From positions 1 through 44,409 of the IMG/VR virus record IMGVR_UViG_3300033417_000017: DNA of 44,409 nucleotides; one strand, written 5' to 3'. This DNA is from a virus. Numbering within the stretch: the first letter of the stretch is position 1; each line of letters begins with the position of its first letter. The notes beneath the pieces were generated by a model. It was not told where the DNA came from, searched no databases, and worked only from the letters and a program-made list of their open reading frames with translations. Positions 1 to 44,409 of the stretch are shown here, piece by piece. The translations under genes and the position numbers were made by a program.

Positions 1-12
1 CCCCCCCCCCCC
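1..12 (-). repeat. C12 homopolymer (G12 on the coding minus strand); second copy at 44283..44294
   Basis: Twelve consecutive C counted at the window start and again after GA at 44281-44282. Confidence 0.95.
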
Positions 13-127
13 ACCAAACCCCCGTCCAGCGGGGGTGGCTTGGCCATCTTGCGGATCGCTTCCATCTGCTCATCGCTGATTTCGTCGTTGTAGTCGGGAA
101 GGTCATGCTCCATAGATTTGCGGTTCG
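1..127. repeat. Terminal overlap identical to 44283..44409; circular closure of the assembly (unique length 44282 bp)
   Basis: Read directly: bases 1-127 (C12-ACCAAACCCCCGTCCAGC...CATAGATTTGCGGTTCG) recur exactly at 44283-44409. Confidence 0.95.
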
Positions 128-521
128 CCGTATCCCCACAGCTTGCAGCCGAAAGGTGGGTTAGCATGGCGGCGGCTTCATGCGGTGTGTTATCTAGCGT
201 GAAGAACGCAGGGCCATCGGCGGTGCTATCGTGGTGGGTTCTGTACCAACTTTGCGGCGTTTCCAGTCGTTCCACCAGTCCCCCAACCTCTGCCGTGGGT
301 GGAGAAGGGAAGTCGGCGATGTTGCAAGGCTCCGCGCCACAATGAGGACATGCGGTTGCGATCCTTCCTCCACAGTCGGGGCAATTTACGCCCGGCCCCT
401 CTGCCGTGGGTGGAGAGAGGCGAGCGGCGATGCGGGCAGCAGTTTCGGCGCAGGAATCGCACCCGCTATGAAGCAGCCCTTCCTCCTCAAGCGCCTCTCT
501 CACTTGTTCAGCGGTCGGCAT
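1..521 (-). CDS. N-terminal part of a junction-spanning Cys-rich ORF (runs off the window start and continues at 44282 in the circular genome)
   Basis: ATG at 521 with GGAGG 7 nt upstream. Hand translation is open from 521 to 1: MPTAEQVREALEEEGLLHSGCDSCAETAARIAARLSPPTAEGPGVNCPDCGGRIATACPHCGAEPCNIADFPSPPTAEVGG...MEHDLPDYNDEISDEQMEAIRKMAKPPPLDGGLV, then the G12 tract. Absent from the ORF track because there is no stop inside the window. Confidence 0.7.
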   Translation of the reverse strand, partial: MPTAEQVREALEEEGLLHSGCDSCAETAARIAARLSPPTAEGPGVNCPDCGGRIATACPHCGAEPCNIADFPSPPTAEVGGLVERLETPQSWYRTHHDSTADGPAFFTLDNTPHEAAAMLTHLSAASCGDTANRKSMEHDLPDYNDEISDEQMEAIRKMAKPPPLDGGLVGGG

Positions 522-795
522 CGGAAGCCTCCAGTTCTGCGCGCTGGTTCCATGCAGCGATGGCCGAAGCCGTTGCTTGAGCAATTGTTGGCTTGCCATT
601 AGCCCGGCCCCAAGGTGTTTCATCGCACTGAGTTCTGGGAAAGGCGTAATTGCAGAACCGACATCCAATGCGCGGGCAAGGGGTTTCCATGCCGCTCGCC
701 GCCGTTCCATGATATCGGACATAGTCCAGTTCAGCCACCCCGCCGCAAAACGGACACGCTTTCAGCTCCGCCGCGATCTGCTTAGCGTCCTTCAT
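508..795 (-). CDS. Lar-family restriction alleviation-like zinc-ribbon protein
   Basis: 95 aa with an N-terminal LKACPFCGG zinc-ribbon start, a second Cys pair (CRFC) and a C-terminal AIAAWNQRA motif, as I remember for Lar-like proteins. Confidence 0.7.
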   Translation of the reverse strand: MKDAKQIAAELKACPFCGGVAELDYVRYHGTAASGMETPCPRIGCRFCNYAFPRTQCDETPWGRANGKPTIAQATASAIAAWNQRAELEASDADR

Positions 796-964
796 CGTTC
801 GGCTCCTTAGGCCGGTGTTCGCCGCAGTGATCGTTCTTGTGGTGGAGAATAAACTCAGGAAAGCGCGTGCAGTATTTGGCTTTGGGTGGTGTGATTACGT
901 CGCCGAATGGCGGCTCGTCGTTGTCTAAGCCCCAAAACCGGCAATTCTCGCATCGTGCGCTCAC
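782..964 (-). CDS. Small Cys-rich hypothetical protein (60 aa)
   Basis: In-frame GTG at 964 forms a GTGA start/stop overlap with the upstream gene (stop 961-963). Reads VSARCENCRFWGLDNDEPPFGDV...CTRF...HCGEH. The longer track ORF N-terminus overlaps the upstream gene and is R-rich junk. Confidence 0.55.
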   Translation of the reverse strand: MSARCENCRFWGLDNDEPPFGDVITPPKAKYCTRFPEFILHHKNDHCGEHRPKEPNDEGR

Positions 965-1392
965 TTGCCACCCCCTGCGAGGGCTTGGAGCGGAGGGCAC
1001 ACGATTTCGTCGAATATTTCGTTCAGCGCCTCTTCGGCTGCTTTCTCTCCTGCCTTCCACTTAAGCCAGTTGCCGCAAACGATTTTCCGCAGTTCCGCAT
1101 TCTCGACCCGAAGCGTTTCAGTGCTGGAGATGCGGTGGCGATGCTCGGTTAGCAAGGCGAGCCACATAACGCGCGCCAGATCAGCCACATCGCTGCTGTG
1201 TTTGTATCGCGTTGGGATGCCGTCGCCCCTGTGCGAATACATTTCACAAAGCGCCATTTTCGCAGCGCTCGCTTCGAGCAAGGTTGCGGTGCGCAGATCG
1301 TTGGCTATTCCCAGGTCGAGGTTCTCTTGTGCGAACGGTGTCACCTCGACAGGATCGGTTTCGGGGCGGGTGAGGGTAGCTAGTTTGGCCAT
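961..1392 (-). CDS. Hypothetical early protein carrying the MYSHRGDGIPT motif
   Basis: 143-aa ORF; GGAACGGAAG upstream of the ATG; a TGA lies immediately before the ATG in the same frame; shares an 11-aa motif with the 2118..2453 product. Confidence 0.75.
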   Translation of the reverse strand: MAKLATLTRPETDPVEVTPFAQENLDLGIANDLRTATLLEASAAKMALCEMYSHRGDGIPTRYKHSSDVADLARVMWLALLTEHRHRISSTETLRVENAELRKIVCGNWLKWKAGEKAAEEALNEIFDEIVCPPLQALAGGGK

Positions 1393-1612
1393 TCACTTCC
1401 GTTCCACCGACACCTGCGGGGCACCATTTTTCAATGGTATAGATGGCTGCCTTCGCCACCTCGCTAACCCGCTGCATATAAGCTTCGTGGTCGGCATTGG
1501 CTTGGGCGAGCTTGTAGGCGGTATTATCGCGGGCGGCGAGGGAGTGAAACCAAGTACTATTCAGCGCCGCTTTCGCCCGCGCGATCTGGGCTTCGGTTGG
1601 TTCAATGGTCAT
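1244..1612 (-). CDS. Hypothetical protein; the 3' ~150 nt overlap the next gene and read as R-rich junk (possible frameshift at GGGG 1418-1421)
   Basis: ATG at 1612 in an ATGA overlap with the upstream stop (1609-1611). MTIEPTEAQIARAKAALNSTWFHSLAARDN... looks protein-like up to ...IEKWCP. Confidence 0.5.
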   Translation of the reverse strand: MTIEPTEAQIARAKAALNSTWFHSLAARDNTAYKLAQANADHEAYMQRVSEVAKAAIYTIEKWCPAGVGGTEVNGQTSYPHPPRNRSCRGDTVRTREPRPGNSQRSAHRNLARSERCENGAL

Positions 1613-28614: not shown

Positions 28615-28956
28615 CAGCCGCGAGATACACCCAATAGCTTCGTCATAGTCGCCGATACACGCATAAGCTACGGCGAGGAAATCCACGAATGGCAGCGGAC
28701 GACAGAAACGATGCGTATCAGCGCTGTTAGCCCATTCGGGCTCGGCGTAGACGCTACGCTCCTTCGCCTTCTCAATATAGTGGATGGCCTTGCGTAAGTC
28801 TTCTGCGCCGTTCTTCTGCCGCCAGCGGACGACATACTTGGTAGCGCAAGCTAACAGATAGTGCAGCTTAATATCGCAGACCCAATCCCAGTGCTGGTAT
28901 TCAAGAGCGCCATAGTGATCTCCACCTACTTGCGTCTTGTTTGCTTCACTTTCCAT
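28576..28956 (-). CDS. DUF3310-family protein
   Basis: 126 aa; TQVGGDHYGALEYQHWDW...ACATKYVVRWRQKNGAEDLRKAIHYIEKA matches the GGxHY...KY..R...K.G.EDL.KA pattern I recall for DUF3310 (SaV-like). Confidence 0.75.
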   Translation of the reverse strand: MESEANKTQVGGDHYGALEYQHWDWVCDIKLHYLLACATKYVVRWRQKNGAEDLRKAIHYIEKAKERSVYAEPEWANSADTHRFCRPLPFVDFLAVAYACIGDYDEAIGCISRLLAAEQPPEEPTP

Positions 28957-29551
28957 GCGCGTTTCTCCAAAGATCTGTAATGTAGCGGTAGAACCAAACG
29001 TCTATTTTTTGCGCCGGGTCGTTTACGGCCAAGTGTAATTCGTCGATAGGCGCCCACGGTTCTCCATTATCAGTGCCGTATAGTAGCGCCGATAAATATT
29101 TTCTAAATTCATCGGCGCAGTAAACCAGACGCGGATGCGCGTTGCCCATGCGGCGTTCATCGACGCAGAAGCGGAATCCGTCAGCGGCGTCGGCGAATTT
29201 TAGAACCCACGTTTCGTGATCCTCCAGATCTTGCTCTAAGTCTATGCCGTGTTCCCGGGCAGTGTCTTCTTCGTGGCCGCCGAATACTTCGCGGAAGGTC
29301 GCGTGGTCGCCGTAGTCTGGCAACGCGCGCTTCGTCGGCGCGGGCATGTCGCCCACTATATGCTCAGCCATGTCGTGCTTCAAGGCGGCGCGGAGCAGCT
29401 TGGCGCTGGCCAGCGGGCGCAGCCGCATGATGATGCACGCCACGTTATAGCTATGATGACCCACGCGGTCAGTCAGCAGCGTTGGAATGCCGTGGAACCT
29501 GATAGTTCCGCCGCCGTGCCACATGAACTCCAGGTCTCTAAAGTCGCTCAT
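28946..29551 (-). CDS. HD-domain phosphohydrolase, YfbR-like 5'-deoxynucleotidase type
   Basis: ATG 29551 in an ATGA overlap with the upstream stop, with GGAGGA upstream. HSYNVACIIMRL...ALKHDMAEHIVGDMPAPTKR gives the H...HD...D signature. Confidence 0.8.
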   Translation of the reverse strand: MSDFRDLEFMWHGGGTIRFHGIPTLLTDRVGHHSYNVACIIMRLRPLASAKLLRAALKHDMAEHIVGDMPAPTKRALPDYGDHATFREVFGGHEEDTAREHGIDLEQDLEDHETWVLKFADAADGFRFCVDERRMGNAHPRLVYCADEFRKYLSALLYGTDNGEPWAPIDELHLAVNDPAQKIDVWFYRYITDLWRNAHGK

Positions 29552-30678
29552 CGCTCCGTTCCTCCGGGTGTGCTTAGCTCCGCCGCGCGGTGCATCCATT
29601 CAGCAGACGCCGCCCGCCAGTCACAGTTCATATCGCCGATCTTGTAGCACCTGTCTATGGCTGTCTCGTAGTCGTAAACCTTACGAGAATCCCATGCGCG
29701 GGCTATGGGGAAAGCCACATCGGCCAAGAAAGAGTGGTTCAGCGCTGTGGTTGGGCGTTCTCTTGCCCCGCCCCGCTTCCACGGTGTTTTGATTGGGTTA
29801 AGCACAGGGTCAAAGAAATCCATGAACCTTGGCAGTTCTTCTTCAAACAGGTCCATGGTGTTGTAATGAAACATGGGGGTCGCGTTGAGCAGCCCCTGCG
29901 TCACGCCGCGCGTGTAGCGGTCGCTCACCATGGCGTCGTGCGCTCTAGCACCGAGATCTTTAACAATGTCAGTGTAGATATGGTAGTCATTACTGATTTG
30001 CGTCATCGTGCCTACGCGGACGTTGAGCCGCGCCGCCATGTACTCCAGCAGAACACTGAAGTTGACCGCGTTGGCTCCATGCGCGCCCCACCACAGATCA
30101 TTGGAGCGACAACAGACAGTCATGTGCAGTGCGTCACCAATTATCCTAAAGTAGACGTGCGTATTGCAGGGGACGTCTTTGCTACTGCCTGCGCTCAGCA
30201 GGTCGCCGTTCATAACGAACTCTCGGTCGCTGGTTTGGTGGATACCCCATGCGTCCCACATGGTAAGCACGGCGCGACGGCTCGAAGGATCTCTGGCCAG
30301 AGCTTCGACTATTTCATCAAGCTGGTCATACCCGAAGTTCTTCCGCCACCTATACCCGTAGGCTCCCGGCTGCGTTTTGCCGCCGTCGTCAGAGTACTCG
30401 AGCATTCGCTTGTTGTACTGGCCCAGCCATGCCAAGTCATTGCGCCCAGCGAGCATCCATAGGGCTTCCATAAGGTGGAAGAAGGGGTTGGCGTTACGCA
30501 GCGGGCTGAACAGCACCCGTTCCAGCGGCTTGGCGGTTACAGTGGCAACGGGCACGCCACACGTAATAACGTGGCCATTGCGCGACTCTGTGCCGTAGGT
30601 CGGCGCATCTGGGTCGCACATAAGCTTAAGACCAAGGCTCAGCGCTTGGTTGACGTTGCGTGGGTTGAGCGTTATCAT
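29548..30678 (-). CDS. Thymidylate synthase (ThyA)-fold family enzyme; dUMP/dCMP methylase or hydroxymethylase
   Basis: 376 aa; RNANPFFHLMEALWMLAGRNDL, YGYRWR, DQLDEIV, DPSSRRAVLTMWD, the catalytic-Cys context VPCNTHVYF, and CRSNDLWWGAHGANAVNF (RSxD...N block). Confidence 0.8.
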   Translation of the reverse strand: MITLNPRNVNQALSLGLKLMCDPDAPTYGTESRNGHVITCGVPVATVTAKPLERVLFSPLRNANPFFHLMEALWMLAGRNDLAWLGQYNKRMLEYSDDGGKTQPGAYGYRWRKNFGYDQLDEIVEALARDPSSRRAVLTMWDAWGIHQTSDREFVMNGDLLSAGSSKDVPCNTHVYFRIIGDALHMTVCCRSNDLWWGAHGANAVNFSVLLEYMAARLNVRVGTMTQISNDYHIYTDIVKDLGARAHDAMVSDRYTRGVTQGLLNATPMFHYNTMDLFEEELPRFMDFFDPVLNPIKTPWKRGGARERPTTALNHSFLADVAFPIARAWDSRKVYDYETAIDRCYKIGDMNCDWRAASAEWMHRAAELSTPGGTER

Positions 30679-31514
30679 AGTATCACTCCTGTCTGTGGGT
30701 ATCTCTGCTTGGGTCTGCCTTCGCCCAGACGAACACGTTCGTACTTATCAAACTCACAGAGACAATTTTGCACGTCCTGCGCGGTGAGCGGCAACATGCT
30801 AAGGCGCTTGTTGACCGCGTCACGTAGAACGCTCAGCCGCTCCCTGAACGCAGCTTCTGACATAAGGGCGCTTATGGGCAGCCCCAGCACACGATTCATT
30901 CCTCTGCGGCTGCCGGGGCCACTTGCGGCGAAGGTGTTGAAGTCTTCCCACTTGTTTGGGTCGGCGTACTTCCAATCGGCTATAACTTGCGCCGCCATAA
31001 AGCTGCCCAGCCCATTTTGGTTGGATAGAACAAGGTAAACGTTCGCAAGCTGGCCAACGTCCATATCCCGCGCCAGCTTTTTGCGATTATCCCACAGGGG
31101 CTGAAGAACGTGGTCGATCACATAGTCTACTTTATTCATCGCGCGCCCGTTCGTACTAACGATGTACGCAGCATTGAAGTTCTTTAGTTTCTCAGCCGTT
31201 CGTTCATGCAAGTGCTCACGAATAGATTCCGGTTTGAACGGAAGAACAAGTGGCTTTATACGAGACAACGCGCCTTCGTTGTTGAACAGCCGCGCCATAA
31301 CAAGCGCAAACCACAGATACTTATGGTCGCGCCAGCGATCTAGATAGTTCTCAAAAATCCACTTAGTCACGCGGTCATCGTTGCGACGGACGTTGCAGAA
31401 GCGATACTGGCTGATTATAGGGTCAGGTCGGACTATCTTACCGCCGCGCTCCTTGGCTACGCGGTGGCGCTCGCGGGCTTTGATAAAGTTGACTAGATCA
31501 GCTACACGCATCAC
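30675..31514 (-). CDS. aGPT-Pplase-like protein (alpha-glutamyl/putrescinyl thymine pyrophosphorylase family candidate)
   Basis: 279 aa. The N-terminal block RPDPIISQYRFCNVRRNDDRVTKWIFENY resembles, from memory, the conserved block of the aGPT-Pplase family. All-helical composition; adjacent to the ThyA-like gene. Not verified by alignment. Confidence 0.5.
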   Translation of the reverse strand: MMRVADLVNFIKARERHRVAKERGGKIVRPDPIISQYRFCNVRRNDDRVTKWIFENYLDRWRDHKYLWFALVMARLFNNEGALSRIKPLVLPFKPESIREHLHERTAEKLKNFNAAYIVSTNGRAMNKVDYVIDHVLQPLWDNRKKLARDMDVGQLANVYLVLSNQNGLGSFMAAQVIADWKYADPNKWEDFNTFAASGPGSRRGMNRVLGLPISALMSEAAFRERLSVLRDAVNKRLSMLPLTAQDVQNCLCEFDKYERVRLGEGRPKQRYPQTGVIL

Positions 31515-32274
31515 AGCCCTCCTTGTACGCCTTCTTCCAAGAAATTACAACTTCAAAGCGTTGGCCCCATTCCCCGTTGCCTGACTTGTAGTCAGTTTCT
31601 CGCACACGGACAAACTCAGAGTGGCGCTCTTTCAATCGCATGACGCTGTTATTGTGGACCTCCAGCGTGCGATACGTATTCGCACCGCCGGGGGAGCCGT
31701 GCCCGCCGTGCTGATTGACCGCGTAGCCGCCCATGACGATATTTGGGAACCCCTTGCGCAGAAGTTGGAGCGTGATATCGAAGTCGTCTTGCACTAGCCC
31801 GGCGCAGTACTTCACGCCAGCAGCACGGAACTTCTCCACATTGAAGCCGAATACGTGCCACGGACGAGAGCAGAACATATCCCCGGTTACGCGGTTACCG
31901 CCCTGCCGCGCAATCGTAGACGCGTGGGCGTACTTACCAAGATGCTTCTCCAGCGTGTTGAACATGCGGCGCACGTCGGCGGGCTTGGCCTGCCTGAACT
32001 TCGTAGTATCGTCGGTGCGGCGCACGTGGAAGCTAAGGTCGTCATCCACCATGACCGCCGCGGCCTCGCTGGCGTGATCCATGATCCACTGGCGCGCACG
32101 GGCTATGCCAATGCCTTGCGGATGCTCGACGACCTCGACAGCGGGCAGGGCGGCGCGGTACGCCTTGGCTTCACCCTTGGGTACGACCATTATGGGCGTA
32201 AGCCCAGCGCCTGCTAGGTCTAGGGCGGTACGCACGTCGTGGCTGCGTTGCATGGAAGGTATGAATATCTGCAT
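31498..32274 (-). CDS. GT-A fold glycosyltransferase-like protein
   Basis: 258 aa. MQIFIPSMQRSHDV (beta1 plus Ser/Arg as in GT-A N-termini), AAVMVDDDLSF (DxD) and VQDDFDITLQLL. CDS confidence is high; function confidence is moderate. Confidence 0.55.
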   Translation of the reverse strand: MQIFIPSMQRSHDVRTALDLAGAGLTPIMVVPKGEAKAYRAALPAVEVVEHPQGIGIARARQWIMDHASEAAAVMVDDDLSFHVRRTDDTTKFRQAKPADVRRMFNTLEKHLGKYAHASTIARQGGNRVTGDMFCSRPWHVFGFNVEKFRAAGVKYCAGLVQDDFDITLQLLRKGFPNIVMGGYAVNQHGGHGSPGGANTYRTLEVHNNSVMRLKERHSEFVRVRETDYKSGNGEWGQRFEVVISWKKAYKEGCDACS

Positions 32275-41127: not shown

Positions 41128-41484
41128 CTACTCTCCTTTTTCGTGCTCACTATCTAAGTCACCAGTGCCCCGGCACGCGCCGCACTGTACGCGCAGCGCC
41201 CGCCACGCTCTCTGCTGCATGACGAAGCCCTTACCATCGCAGACAAGGCACTTTGTTCCCGCGCCGGGGCTGGGCTTGGGCTCTGGGTTGCGCTCTATCC
41301 ACGCCAGTAGGATGCACTTGGCGCGGTCGATGGCGACGAAGGCTTCTAAGCTTCCGCCTTGGTCTGGATGCGCTAACTTCGCAAGCTTCCGATACGCGCT
41401 GGCGACACCCTCGGCGTCAAACTCAGGAAACTTAAGATTAAGTTCCCGCGCAGCGTCGCGCGCCGTGTTCTCAGTGACAGTCAC
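41128..41484 (-). CDS. J-domain (DnaJ-like) protein with a CxxCxGxG zinc finger
   Basis: 118 aa; AYRKLAKLAHPDQGGS (HPD motif), CLVCDGKG and CGACRGTG. Confidence 0.85.
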   Translation of the reverse strand: MTVTENTARDAARELNLKFPEFDAEGVASAYRKLAKLAHPDQGGSLEAFVAIDRAKCILLAWIERNPEPKPSPGAGTKCLVCDGKGFVMQQRAWRALRVQCGACRGTGDLDSEHEKGE

Positions 41485-43520
41485 TTCTTAATGCCCACGG
41501 GCTTAAGCTTCAAGTTAGCCAGCATCTTCTTAGTGTCTTTGCAACGCCGCCACGTATCTACATTGCGAACAGCGAAGAAGCGTTCCATCTTGCCAGACGG
41601 CCCTAGCAGTGGCCTTCCGTCACTCACTTGCGCAAACCCAGAGTTGCTGAGCTGCCTACCCAATCCTACCGCCGTAACGCGGCTATTGGGGTGATCGCGC
41701 TCGTACATATTCAATAGCTCACGGCTACTGAACAGGTCGCGCGTATGGCGCATGTCCCCCATCACGAGAATTTGGTCAGGGAATTGTTTCAGTTCCGCTA
41801 CCCATGCTCCGGCATCACCTTTAGCGGCTGCGATCATGCGTTCTTTGGCGAACGTTCTGGGCGCGGGCGCGTTTGGATTAAACTTCTCGCTTATCTTTCG
41901 TTTGAGTAGCCAGTCCATAAGATGACTAGCCCCGTCTCCCTTGTACCAAGCGTCGTACTCTGCGTAGAACGCATCATCTAGTGGATCGCCGACAACTTCA
42001 ACAACCAAGAATCTGCGGTCCTTGTCCTCTAAGAAGAAGCTGTCTCCATGCTGCGATGTAAAGAGGAAGTTCATGCAATTAGGTAGAGAGTACTGCGGAA
42101 CGAACTTTATGTTTATGTCTATCTCTGACTTGGTAATCAGCCGCTTAAGAACGTTCATGTAGGCGCGGTTATCCTTGCCGGTTATTTCGTCGCCTAGAAT
42201 AAATTGCTTGTTCTCCGCCCAATATGATTCTTCAAGATCGGCATCTGCTATTTCCTTGAAGTTTTCGCCGTATATCTTGCCGAGTGTGTAGCCTACTAGC
42301 GTCTTGCCGGTGCCCTGCGCCAGCCCGTGAATAACTGGCGCGACGAACATTTTCGCGCCGGGGTTCTGTACAGGATAAGCGCACCAGTCATAGAAATACT
42401 CAAGAACGTCTTGTCCAGCATCTTCAAATATGAATTGCGTTAGTCTTAGCCACGGCTTTACGGGGCCGCGCAGTGGCGTTGTTCCCCATCCGGGCCATTG
42501 GTTTAGCTTGTTGTCCGCCGTCACCACTGGCAACCCCGGCGCGTAGGTAAGCTTGCGTACACTGCGGCGCAGCGGCCAGCGGAGCCACGCGGGGGCGGCA
42601 GGCGCTTTCTCGCGCACAAGGTCGCCCTTGGCCCCGACCGTGGTTTCTGTGGCGCTGGCGGTGGCCCAGCGGCTATGCCCCTTGAACATGTCGGCGTTCA
42701 TCTTCTGCCCCGTTTCCTCCACCACTATTAGACCGGGGTCTTCGACGTACACAACTTCTTTATTTATGTCCCATAGGGCGCGCGTCAGCCCTAACGACTC
42801 CGCGGTCGACAACAAGTCTCTTAGTTCATCGGCAGTGTGCGCCAGCAAGTAGTCGTCAAGGCCGACCTTTGCCCCTTCCTCCCCTTCCGGCAGCGCCAGA
42901 ATCCTTATGTGCGCTCCGCGCTCTTGTAGTTCCTCACAGAGCGCATTAATGGCGAGACACACGTTTGACTTACTTAGATAGTCACTGTCAAAACATACGA
43001 AGACAGTACGCTGCGGCCATTTGAACGCGGCCAGCTCTGGCAGAAACCACGTCCCATCTTTACTAGACCTAAAATTCCACACTCCGCCCAGCCCAATGGT
43101 CGGGAACCCGGCAGCGCAGGCGGCAGCCGCTTTTAGCTCACCTTCTGTTATGATTATGTCGTGACCCGGATCTTTGTGAATGGCTGGCCAGTTACCAGTT
43201 GTGGGAATGTAAGCGCATACACCTGAATTGAAAGGCTGCGCATAGCGCTGATCTTTTGCCCCCGCCGCTTCTGCGAAGCCGAAGTTCTTATCCAAGTACC
43301 TTACGCGGTAGAAGTTCGGCCAGTGTGGGTGACTAGCCATTGGCTTTTTGTCTATGCCAAAGTACGGTATTACCAACGCGCGCCGCGCTTGGAACGCCTT
43401 GTCGAGAACGGCGGCGCTAGGCACTTCGTACATGCCTAGCGCGGTCCCCTGTGAACTCGTCAGGCCGCTGCTGAGCAGCTTCTCCTTGCCTAACGTAGTC
43501 CACTCTCCGCGCTTTGTCAT
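41481..43520 (-). CDS. Bifunctional primase-helicase (Toprim N-domain + SF3/D5-like P-loop NTPase)
   Basis: 679 aa; IIITEGELKAAA (Toprim Glu), VFVCFDSDY (DxD), GLDDYL, Walker A HGLAQGTGKT and Walker B RFLVVEV. Confidence 0.9.
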   Translation of the reverse strand: MTKRGEWTTLGKEKLLSSGLTSSQGTALGMYEVPSAAVLDKAFQARRALVIPYFGIDKKPMASHPHWPNFYRVRYLDKNFGFAEAAGAKDQRYAQPFNSGVCAYIPTTGNWPAIHKDPGHDIIITEGELKAAAACAAGFPTIGLGGVWNFRSSKDGTWFLPELAAFKWPQRTVFVCFDSDYLSKSNVCLAINALCEELQERGAHIRILALPEGEEGAKVGLDDYLLAHTADELRDLLSTAESLGLTRALWDINKEVVYVEDPGLIVVEETGQKMNADMFKGHSRWATASATETTVGAKGDLVREKAPAAPAWLRWPLRRSVRKLTYAPGLPVVTADNKLNQWPGWGTTPLRGPVKPWLRLTQFIFEDAGQDVLEYFYDWCAYPVQNPGAKMFVAPVIHGLAQGTGKTLVGYTLGKIYGENFKEIADADLEESYWAENKQFILGDEITGKDNRAYMNVLKRLITKSEIDINIKFVPQYSLPNCMNFLFTSQHGDSFFLEDKDRRFLVVEVVGDPLDDAFYAEYDAWYKGDGASHLMDWLLKRKISEKFNPNAPAPRTFAKERMIAAAKGDAGAWVAELKQFPDQILVMGDMRHTRDLFSSRELLNMYERDHPNSRVTAVGLGRQLSNSGFAQVSDGRPLLGPSGKMERFFAVRNVDTWRRCKDTKKMLANLKLKPVGIKK

Positions 43521-43590: not shown

Positions 43591-44280
43591 CTAACGCAGC
43601 GCTGATGGCAAGCCGTGCCTGCGCAGCGCATCGTAGGGCGCGCCGAGCAGGTCCGGGGCGTAGTGGGTTATACCAGCGGCGCTATGGTCTCTGTGATTAA
43701 TCCCCAGCCCCTCCTGAACACATTCGAACTGAGCGCAGTCGTCGCACCAGAACACGCGGCCCAGCATCCACACGCGCGTTTCTTCATTGAACTGCGCTCC
43801 TATGTAGATCTTGTGCGGCTCTACAGGAGAGCCGCTGAAAACTTCGCGCCACTGAGCAGTTCTCGTCTTCTCATGAACGCGGTAGTAGGATGGCTCCGTT
43901 AGCATTCTCTGGCCGCAATCCAAGCAATAGCGACGTCCACCTGTAGTCTCATCTTGGTTGTTGTGCAAGCAATCCATCTCACCCTCCCCTCGCCCAAGGC
44001 CGCGGATGGCAGCGGCGACGATCAAAGCGGCAGTAGCGAAGTTTTCAAAGCCGCCAGCATTTTGCCGCTTGGCCCGGTGGTTGTCCGCCACCTTCGCACA
44101 CCGCTCCCGCTCAGCCGCCAGCCTGCCGGGGAGATCGATGGCGGTGAGGGCGGAGATTGTCGCGCGAAGGGCGGTCGCCAGCTTCTCGGCCTGATAAACT
44201 ACCTCATCAGCTTGATCGTCGTTGTATTTCGTCCAATTGGCAAGCGCTAACTGGCCTTGGGTTACCTCTTCGCGCGCCAC
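43591..44280 (-). CDS. C-terminal part of the junction-spanning Cys-rich ORF (or an independent gene starting at GTG 44280)
   Basis: The protein-like reading VAREEVTQGQLALANWTKYNDDQADEVVYQAEKLA...CLDCGQRM...FWCDDCAQFEC starts directly after the G12 tract. Upstream of the tract, the track ORF (to 44388) reads W/R/T-rich junk. Confidence 0.7.
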   Translation of the reverse strand: MAREEVTQGQLALANWTKYNDDQADEVVYQAEKLATALRATISALTAIDLPGRLAAERERCAKVADNHRAKRQNAGGFENFATAALIVAAAIRGLGRGEGEMDCLHNNQDETTGGRRYCLDCGQRMLTEPSYYRVHEKTRTAQWREVFSGSPVEPHKIYIGAQFNEETRVWMLGRVFWCDDCAQFECVQEGLGINHRDHSAAGITHYAPDLLGAPYDALRRHGLPSALR

Positions 44281-44282
44281 GA

Positions 44283-44409
44283 CCCCCCCCCCCCACCAAA
44301 CCCCCGTCCAGCGGGGGTGGCTTGGCCATCTTGCGGATCGCTTCCATCTGCTCATCGCTGATTTCGTCGTTGTAGTCGGGAAGGTCATGCTCCATAGATT
44401 TGCGGTTCG
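44283..44409. repeat. Second copy of the terminal overlap (= 1..127)
   Basis: Exact identity read directly. Confidence 0.95.

Follow-up and report, generated by a model that had tools for sequence, protein, structure and literature searches.

In bacteria, contingency loci that vary in phase through poly-G/C tracts occur in Campylobacter, Neisseria and Haemophilus, and tracts of a comparable kind have been described in phages. According to the account of Sorensen et al. (2021, Cell Rep 35:109214) given in bioRxiv 10.1101/2025.10.21.683753, the receptor-binding genes of Fletchervirus, a Campylobacter phage, carry hypermutable poly-G tracts of 7-11 nucleotides (nt). Further poly-G precedents are the methylase gene of Bordetella phage BPP-1 and a baseplate gene of PB1-like phages (bioRxiv 10.1101/2025.10.21.683753). 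In T2 and T4, contingency loci with runs of at least 6 nt, among them agt and rIIA, show mutant frequencies of ~1e-4 to 1e-3 in reads, and such loci were found in every functional gene class (Gomez, Barrick & Waters 2025, bioRxiv 10.1101/2025.10.21.683753). The locus considered here lies in IMG/VR virus record IMGVR_UViG_3300033417_000017, positions 1 to 44,409 (this whole stretch of 44,409 nt is referred to as the window), where a minus-strand run of 12 G residues divides a long open reading frame (ORF), of 403 amino acids (aa) when restored, between two frames. The evidence supports the view that the homopolymer is unstable and that the split ORF reflects one of its lengths, or a miscalled length, and is neither fixed nor a pseudogene nor a site of recoding.

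As in Fletchervirus, so far as the cited account describes it, a G-run of similar length (7-11 nt there, 11-12 nt here) is found within a phage ORF, and the gain or loss of a single nt puts translation into another frame and would create subpopulations that differ in gene product. In the same account, the Fletchervirus tracts are located in genes for tails or receptor binding, are found repeatedly among related phages and have been shown to affect host range, whereas the tract described here lies in an early-region gene beside Lar-like and primase genes, appears to be private to its lineage and has a length heterogeneity that is deduced from assemblies. The locus also resembles those of T2 and T4 in that a coding homopolymer would mutate by polymerase slippage, leading to reversible frameshifts and heterogeneity. 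The T2/T4 runs, however, are mostly of 6-9 nt in AT-rich genomes, whereas here a G-run of 11-12 nt is the sole long run in a GC-rich genome, and the variant state was frequent enough to become an assembly consensus. With bacterial contingency loci it shares a G/C run of ~8-13 nt near a domain boundary or in the 5' part of an ORF, three frame states and the status of a genome outlier. Unlike those loci, it is present in a virus, no surface or restriction-modification function was identified for it, and its downstream modules may persist in the shifted states by means of internal starts. By its structure, therefore, the locus belongs to the contingency-locus class, although by conservation it does not, and its length heterogeneity is read from assemblies.

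Read on the minus strand, the sequence runs CTGGACGGGGGTTTGGTG, G12, TCGTGGCGCGCGAAGAGG, with TC and then GTG directly 3' of the run, and the same tract also forms positions 1-12 of the window. The frame encoding MEHDLPDYNDEISDEQMEAIRKMAKPPPLDGGLV continues past G12 into RGARRGNPRPVSACQLDEIQRRSS and reaches a stop at 44207; the frame encoding VAREEVTQGQLALANW (VAREEVTQGQLALANWTKYNDDQ) ends at the stop at 43591. These statements of the initial annotation, which had been made from the sequence alone, all hold. Its suggestion that 11 or 14 G would fuse the two halves into a protein of ~400 aa is borne out by in silico edits of the tract, which gave products of 403 aa for G11 and 404 aa for G14, as against 198 aa for G12 and 179/180 aa for G10/G13. 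A gain or loss of 1 nt therefore alters both the frame and the gene product, and the N-terminal half ends after a 25-codon out-of-frame tail in the G12 state and after 6 codons in the G13 state. The fused product would contain LDGGLVGGGVVAREEV, with LDGGLVGGGVVAREEVTQGQ as the peptide that spans the junction, and the tract itself encodes Gly-Gly-Gly(-Gly) at ORF residues ~170-173, inside the Pro/Gly-rich stretch PPPLDGGLVGGG. The start of the ORF had been placed at MEHDL; this is an internal Met lacking a Shine-Dalgarno sequence, and the frame is open across the circular junction as far as ATG 521.

The tract exceeds what chance would produce. Within the genome of 44,282 nt, all the remaining homopolymers are of 6 nt or fewer, there are no runs of 7-11 nt, and a first-order Markov model predicts 0.003 G/C runs of at least 12 nt, as against 0.018 with independent bases. 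Since GGG makes up 20% of the Gly codons in the confident genes, consecutive GGG codons are not expected from coding sequence alone. Codon-usage log-likelihood, trained on 16 confident genes and scanned 20 codons at a time, flips at the tract from frame 2 to frame 0, with frame 2 at +10 to +15 just before it. The upstream frame is favoured in the three scan windows that precede the tract and the downstream frame from the first one after it. Because different frames are favoured on each flank, both flanks are coding, without an intergenic gap, and the locus thus has the homopolymer of at least 6-7 nt within an ORF that is typical of contingency loci. It can also be observed that GGGGG-TTTGGT-G11/12, at 44283-44305 on the minus strand, fits the canonical G-quadruplex pattern as a sequence reading, the three G3 blocks with 1-nt loops needing at least G11. 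A G-quadruplex at the tract could help to make polymerases stall or slip and could make the site harder to sequence.

A second assembly contains the tract in another length. A query with the hypothetical G11 fusion retrieved P0001, a protein of 403 aa with 100% identity from end to end, which is encoded on a 44,422-nt contig, MEGAHIT contig k141_4379197 of ENA analysis ERZ27256989. This contig was compared with the circularised window in pieces jointly covering the whole genome, with 0 mismatches and a single 1-nt gap, which is located in the tract (G11 vs G12). The tract lies in the interior of the ENA contig, where the 403-aa gene was called intact, and the implied genome lengths of 44,281 nt (ENA) and 44,282 nt (window) differ by one G of the tract. 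The first alternative raised in the initial annotation, that of a homopolymer length error or of population heterogeneity breaking the assembly graph, is accordingly favoured, as G11 vs G12 is the sole difference between the two assemblies. In addition, a contig of 1,439 nt (L014; ENA ERZ27256991, k141_1883683) is 100% identical to window 80-1518. Judged by this identity, the same clonal phage recurs without single-nucleotide polymorphisms in at least two assemblies of one study or accession series.

It had been remarked that the contig ends fall exactly on the tract, and this is the case: the 127-nt terminal overlap of the window begins on the first C of C12, so that the first base of the contig is the first base of the tract. 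The chance of an arbitrary contig start on that base is ~1 in 44,282. The ENA contig has an overlap of its own, of 141 nt, at window 31698-31838. In both cases the overlap equals k (127 for the window, 141 for the ENA contig), and its position differs between the assemblies. The window represents a circular assembly with the k-mer overlap written at both ends. Both overlaps are thus artefacts of the k-mer length on a genome that is circular or circularly permuted, and the tract marks no physical end. The idea that the 127-nt repeat might be a physical terminal repeat, with the genome ending at the tract, was rejected, since 127 is the value of k and the k141 contig closes elsewhere with 141 nt, and so was a poly-G tail artefact of two-colour chemistry, since unique flanks bridge the run in two assemblies and its length restores the long ORF. 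The pattern is that of short-read homopolymer graph breaks, in which the overlap is the assembler k (127; 141 for MEGAHIT), the break falls on a homopolymer and the assemblies disagree by 1 nt only there.

The neighbourhood of the tract in a de Bruijn graph of k=127 was simulated for mixtures of tract lengths. The first 127-mer of the window, which has exactly C12, branches only if lengths of 12 and >12 coexist, whereas in a simulated 11/12 mixture the branch falls on the k-mer beginning with C11. The most economical reading of this assembler behaviour is that the read set of the window held both 12 and at least 13. Together with the G11 of the ENA contig, the C12 start, which implies a length >12, means that at least three tract lengths are seen or implied. 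The proposal that ambiguity of population or length broke the assembly graph is in line with the simulation, which reproduces the C12 start when 12 and >12 coexist.

The most likely cause, at about an even chance, is slipped-strand mispairing at a real tract of G11-13, leading to a mixed phage population. The long G/C homopolymer sits where two modules of an early gene are joined by a linker rich in Pro and Gly, and slipped-strand mispairing during phage DNA replication would give rise to genomes with 11, 12 and probably at least 13 G, so that the variation would have an in vivo origin instead of coming from the libraries or their sequencing. Genomes with G11 (or G14) would encode one multi-module protein of 403 aa (404 aa). 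Those with G12, the state captured in the window, would encode a truncated N-terminal half with its out-of-frame tail of 25 codons, and those with G13 an N-terminal half truncated after 6 codons. In the G12 and G13 states the C-terminal modules could still be produced from the internal starts GTG 44280 and ATG 43977, and the switch would be one between a fused protein and separate pieces, rather than simply on/off. The mixture of lengths would have branched the k=127 graph, with the result that the contig begins on the tract, and would also explain the disagreement between the assemblers. Technical stutter mostly shortens runs. Clonal G11 would therefore rarely give an assembled G12 plus a branch >12, and an assembler that pops bubbles by depth would not usually turn clonal G12 into G11, so that a real mixture explains both assemblies most simply.

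Several points nevertheless weigh against a real mixture. The length heterogeneity is deduced from assemblies alone; the reads behind the window could be those that gave the ENA contig, or could belong to a sibling sample; and the 1,439-nt contig ends 68 nt before the tract and provides no tract length. Runs of G11-12 are error-prone in Illumina libraries based on the polymerase chain reaction (PCR), so that two assemblers could resolve one noisy bubble differently. Moreover, no G/C run of at least 7 nt is present in the related loci (L003-L005, L010-L012 and L014), and, as no relative carries the tract, its conservation or selection is without support. Finally, with internal starts retained, the phenotype may be hardly affected by the frameshift, and the case for adaptive phase variation is the weaker for it. 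The slipped-strand phase variation considered in the initial annotation is thus favoured as the biological version of length heterogeneity, but less so in its adaptive sense.

Technical miscalling is an unlikely alternative to slipped-strand mispairing. Here the population would be clonal for G11 with the gene intact, and the G12 and the branch of the window would be due to PCR or sequencing stutter and to assembler resolution. Such a miscall would account for G11 and an intact 403-aa ORF in the independent ENA assembly, for the tract being the sole difference in 44.28 kb and for the contig break on the tract, which shows that the graph was ambiguous there. Long G/C runs are, in addition, a known weak point of short-read chemistry. 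However, as stutter mainly shortens runs, G12 would be a small minority among reads from clonal G11, and lengths of at least 13 would be very rare. The assembler of the window nonetheless chose G12, and its start node implies reads >12. The direction of the disagreement thus speaks against simple stutter from one clonal length, the window having the longer allele and implying one that is longer still.

The remaining explanations depend on the composition of the ORF and on its relatives. The protein of ~400 aa that had been predicted is correct in length, and can be refined to what appears, from sequence comparison, to be a chain of at least five modules that are found as separate small genes in other phages (Table 1), at least one of which (module E, ATG 43977) has a Shine-Dalgarno sequence and start of its own. 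Module A is common to the multi-module Lar-domain proteins P0002, P0025 and P0032. In the family of module E, M1, C3 and H5 are invariant, and stand-alone copies are located directly before the primase gene in two related phages (L010, 4531-4908; L011, 4488-4886). In the present genome module E is fused in frame to the upstream modules, yet its own Shine-Dalgarno GGGGAGGG and ATG 43977 are kept. An AlphaFold model of module E is confident (predicted local distance difference test (pLDDT) 84) and has no match in the PDB. Membership of DUF551 was not found for module E, which has no Pfam match and resembles DUF551 proteins only weakly, with E ~0.01 and template modelling (TM) scores of 0.33-0.40 in Foldseek against BFVD. 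A single-sequence AlphaFold model of the 403-aa protein was unusable (pLDDT 36). Pfam, PHROGs and NCBIfam provided no functional annotation for the modules and their homologues, and PDB sequences gave no match.

Relatives of the gene were found neither in cultured phages (tblastn, blastn) nor in IMG/VR by peptide patterns. HMMER, run exhaustively against 1.84 billion representative proteins, found none besides P0001 that covers more than one part of the ORF. Flank-anchored pattern scans that allowed any tract length did not find the locus in viral, metagenome and genome collections, and exact look-ups of the G12-specific products (265 aa, 229 aa) gave no match in the collection searched, which therefore lacks the assembly of the window. 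The primase, used as an anchor, is 77-79% identical in three IMG/VR phages (L010-L012). In L010 and L011, a stand-alone gene of 125 or 132 aa directly before the primase corresponds to ORF residues 276-403, and the sequence further upstream is unrelated. The relatives with a 77-79% identical primase have no G run of at least 7 nt within 5 kb and lack modules A-D entirely. Recurrence of the tract at the same gene in relatives, as in Fletchervirus, was thus not found; on this comparison the tract appears to be private to one phage lineage, the region to be hypervariable and the position of the tract to be without an orthologue. The end of P0003, "...DVGGGG", had the appearance of a second G-tract at a contig end, but is actually GGAGGGGGAGGG, the Shine-Dalgarno of the next gene.

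Decidedly unlikely is an arrangement of two native genes, in which the true tract would be G12 (or G13), the upstream gene would end a short way past the run, the downstream gene would begin at GTG 44280 with the G-run as its Shine-Dalgarno sequence, and the G11 of the ENA contig would be a contraction artefact. The spacing of this start does fit. Several stand-alone homologues of module C start 8-25 residues before LALANWxKYN, the Trp of the motif is residue 17 in P0037 and P0039 and would be residue 16 from GTG 44280, and the G-run followed by TC and GTG forms a plausible ribosome-binding context. Moreover, no homologue joins module B to module C; an alignment of P0022 across the tract in the G11 frame was rejected as support for a fusion, as its part upstream of the motif is not significant (shuffle p = 0.11). 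If the tract were G13, the upstream stop (TAA 44262-44264) would overlap the GTG-started ORF by just 19 nt, which is a typical compact layout, and, with the two halves in different frames, the ORF is bound to be restored by one of -1 and +1, so that a fusion at G11 could well arise by chance. With G12, however, the upstream gene would have a 25-codon Arg-rich tail and an overlap of 74 nt (44207-44280), in a frame without coding signal. Module C, furthermore, lies inside the longer proteins P0003, P0030, P0034, P0036, P0038, P0040 and P0041; multi-module fusions are common in the protein set (e.g. P0002, P0025 and P0032); and modules C, D and E form an in-frame fusion here at any tract length. 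The initial suggestion of two genes with a start at GTG 44280 thus agrees with several stand-alone homologues in its start spacing and retains some weight, although the frame of the G12 tail speaks against it.

Programmed recoding, in which the genome would be fixed at G12 and the fused protein made in a set short:long ratio, either because ribosomes shift frame by +1 (or -2) or because RNA polymerase slips on the G-run, is highly improbable and, as an explanation without support, ranks last: tRNA-Gly can indeed re-pair with a G-run whatever the frame, slippage during transcription can occur at long homopolymers and a +1 shift from G12 yields a product of the 403-aa type, but there is no RNA structure downstream (folding z = -0.25) or around the tract (z = +0.30; DNA fold) that could act as a stimulatory element, the zero-frame codons after the run (GGT CGT GGC) include no stop, rare or hungry codon, neither the shift site nor both frames are conserved in any homologue or relative, and a G11 allele at the DNA level makes recoding unnecessary.

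Table 1. Positions of the tract, the parts and modules of the ORF and the adjacent genes in the window (44,409 nt); a point in the strand column denotes a feature without strand.
Feature	Position in window	ORF residues	Strand	Remarks
G12 homopolymer (C12 on +)	44283..44294		-	Only run >6 in the genome; G11 in ENA contig k141_4379197
Terminal overlap, copy 1	1..127		.	Exact match to 44283-44409; k-mer overlap, not a physical genome end
Terminal overlap, copy 2	44283..44409		.	Exact 127-nt identity with copy 1
Upstream part of ORF (modules A+B)	13..521	1 to ~170	-	ATG 521, preceded by GGAGG; codon usage fits frame 2 up to the tract
Out-of-frame tail RGARRGNPRPVSACQLDEIQRRSS	44207..44282		-	25 codons + stop of the 198-aa product in the G12 state; codon usage favours the other frame
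Downstream part of ORF (modules C+D+E)	43591..44282	174-403	-	In frame with the upstream part only at G11/G14
Candidate GTG start of an independent downstream gene	44278..44280		-	G-run ends 2 nt upstream and could be Shine-Dalgarno-like
Internal ATG of module E (MDCLHNN...)	43975..43977		-	Strong GGGGAGGG Shine-Dalgarno upstream
Module A		~19-76	-	Putative zinc ribbon GVNCPDCGGRIATACPHCGAEP; homologues P0002, P0020, P0025, P0026, P0032
Module B		~77-170	-	No homologues
Module C		~176-227	-	Widespread motif LALANWxKYN...DEVVYQAEK; matches P0003, P0022, P0024 and others
Module D		~212-271	-	Matches C-terminus of the 93-aa P0035
Module E	43591-43977	276-403	-	Family of ~125-aa stand-alone proteins with two CxxC pairs; matches P0004-P0019
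Lar-like restriction-alleviation gene (upstream neighbour)	508..795		-	Pfam PF14354 (E = 5.5e-7), phrog_599; last 14 nt shared with the start of the ORF
Primase-helicase (downstream neighbour)	41481..43520		-	DUF3854 + DUF5906, D5-like; used to find relatives L010-L012

Other features of the ORF and its surroundings are also of note. A direct repeat of 35 nt (window 287-321 and 398-432 on the plus strand; 83% identical, 111 nt apart) encodes SPPTAE(G/V)xG on both sides of the zinc ribbon, at ORF residues ~36-41 and ~73-78 on the minus strand. Similar repeated linker peptides (LTPSALSGE, SHSLPGD[AV]GEGE) are found between the modules of P0002, P0025 and P0032, and repeats of this kind may mark module boundaries or be sequences for recombination. 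Fusions to Lar domains are seen among the homologues of modules A and C (P0002, P0003 and P0032), and small minus-strand genes are present at 782-2453, beside the Lar-like gene at 508-795. With a Lar-like neighbour and Lar-fused homologues, the modular ORF would belong to a Lar-associated early-gene set, which possibly has an anti-defence role. Elsewhere in the window, at 28946-31514 on the minus strand, three genes carry the Pfam labels of an HD/YfbR-like phosphohydrolase (28946-29599), a thymidylate-synthase-family protein (29548-30678) and an HMUDK helical domain (30675-31514), a gene set which is presumably of the kind used by phages that hypermodify thymidine via 5-hydroxymethyl-deoxyuridine.

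As the gene is intact in a publicly available assembly of the same genome, evidence from reads is needed before the split ORF is annotated as a pseudogene, two genes or a recoding site. For metagenomes in general, a cheap flag for loci of this type is provided by circular contigs with a k-mer overlap beginning exactly on a homopolymer, and by sibling assemblies that differ only there. Phage contingency loci are only now starting to be recognised. If the mixture is real, an uncultured, GC-rich phage would be added to the few phages in which a poly-G switch is known, with an unusually long tract that is the only long run in its genome and is located in an early gene. It is quite improbable that the tract is an early, anti-defence-adjacent contingency locus at which G11-13 toggles a multi-module zinc-ribbon protein between a fused form of 403 aa and separately translated pieces. 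Were this so, the locus would be a heritable and reversible fusion/fission switch and not a simple ON/OFF one, through which phage subpopulations would differ in how they handle host defences.

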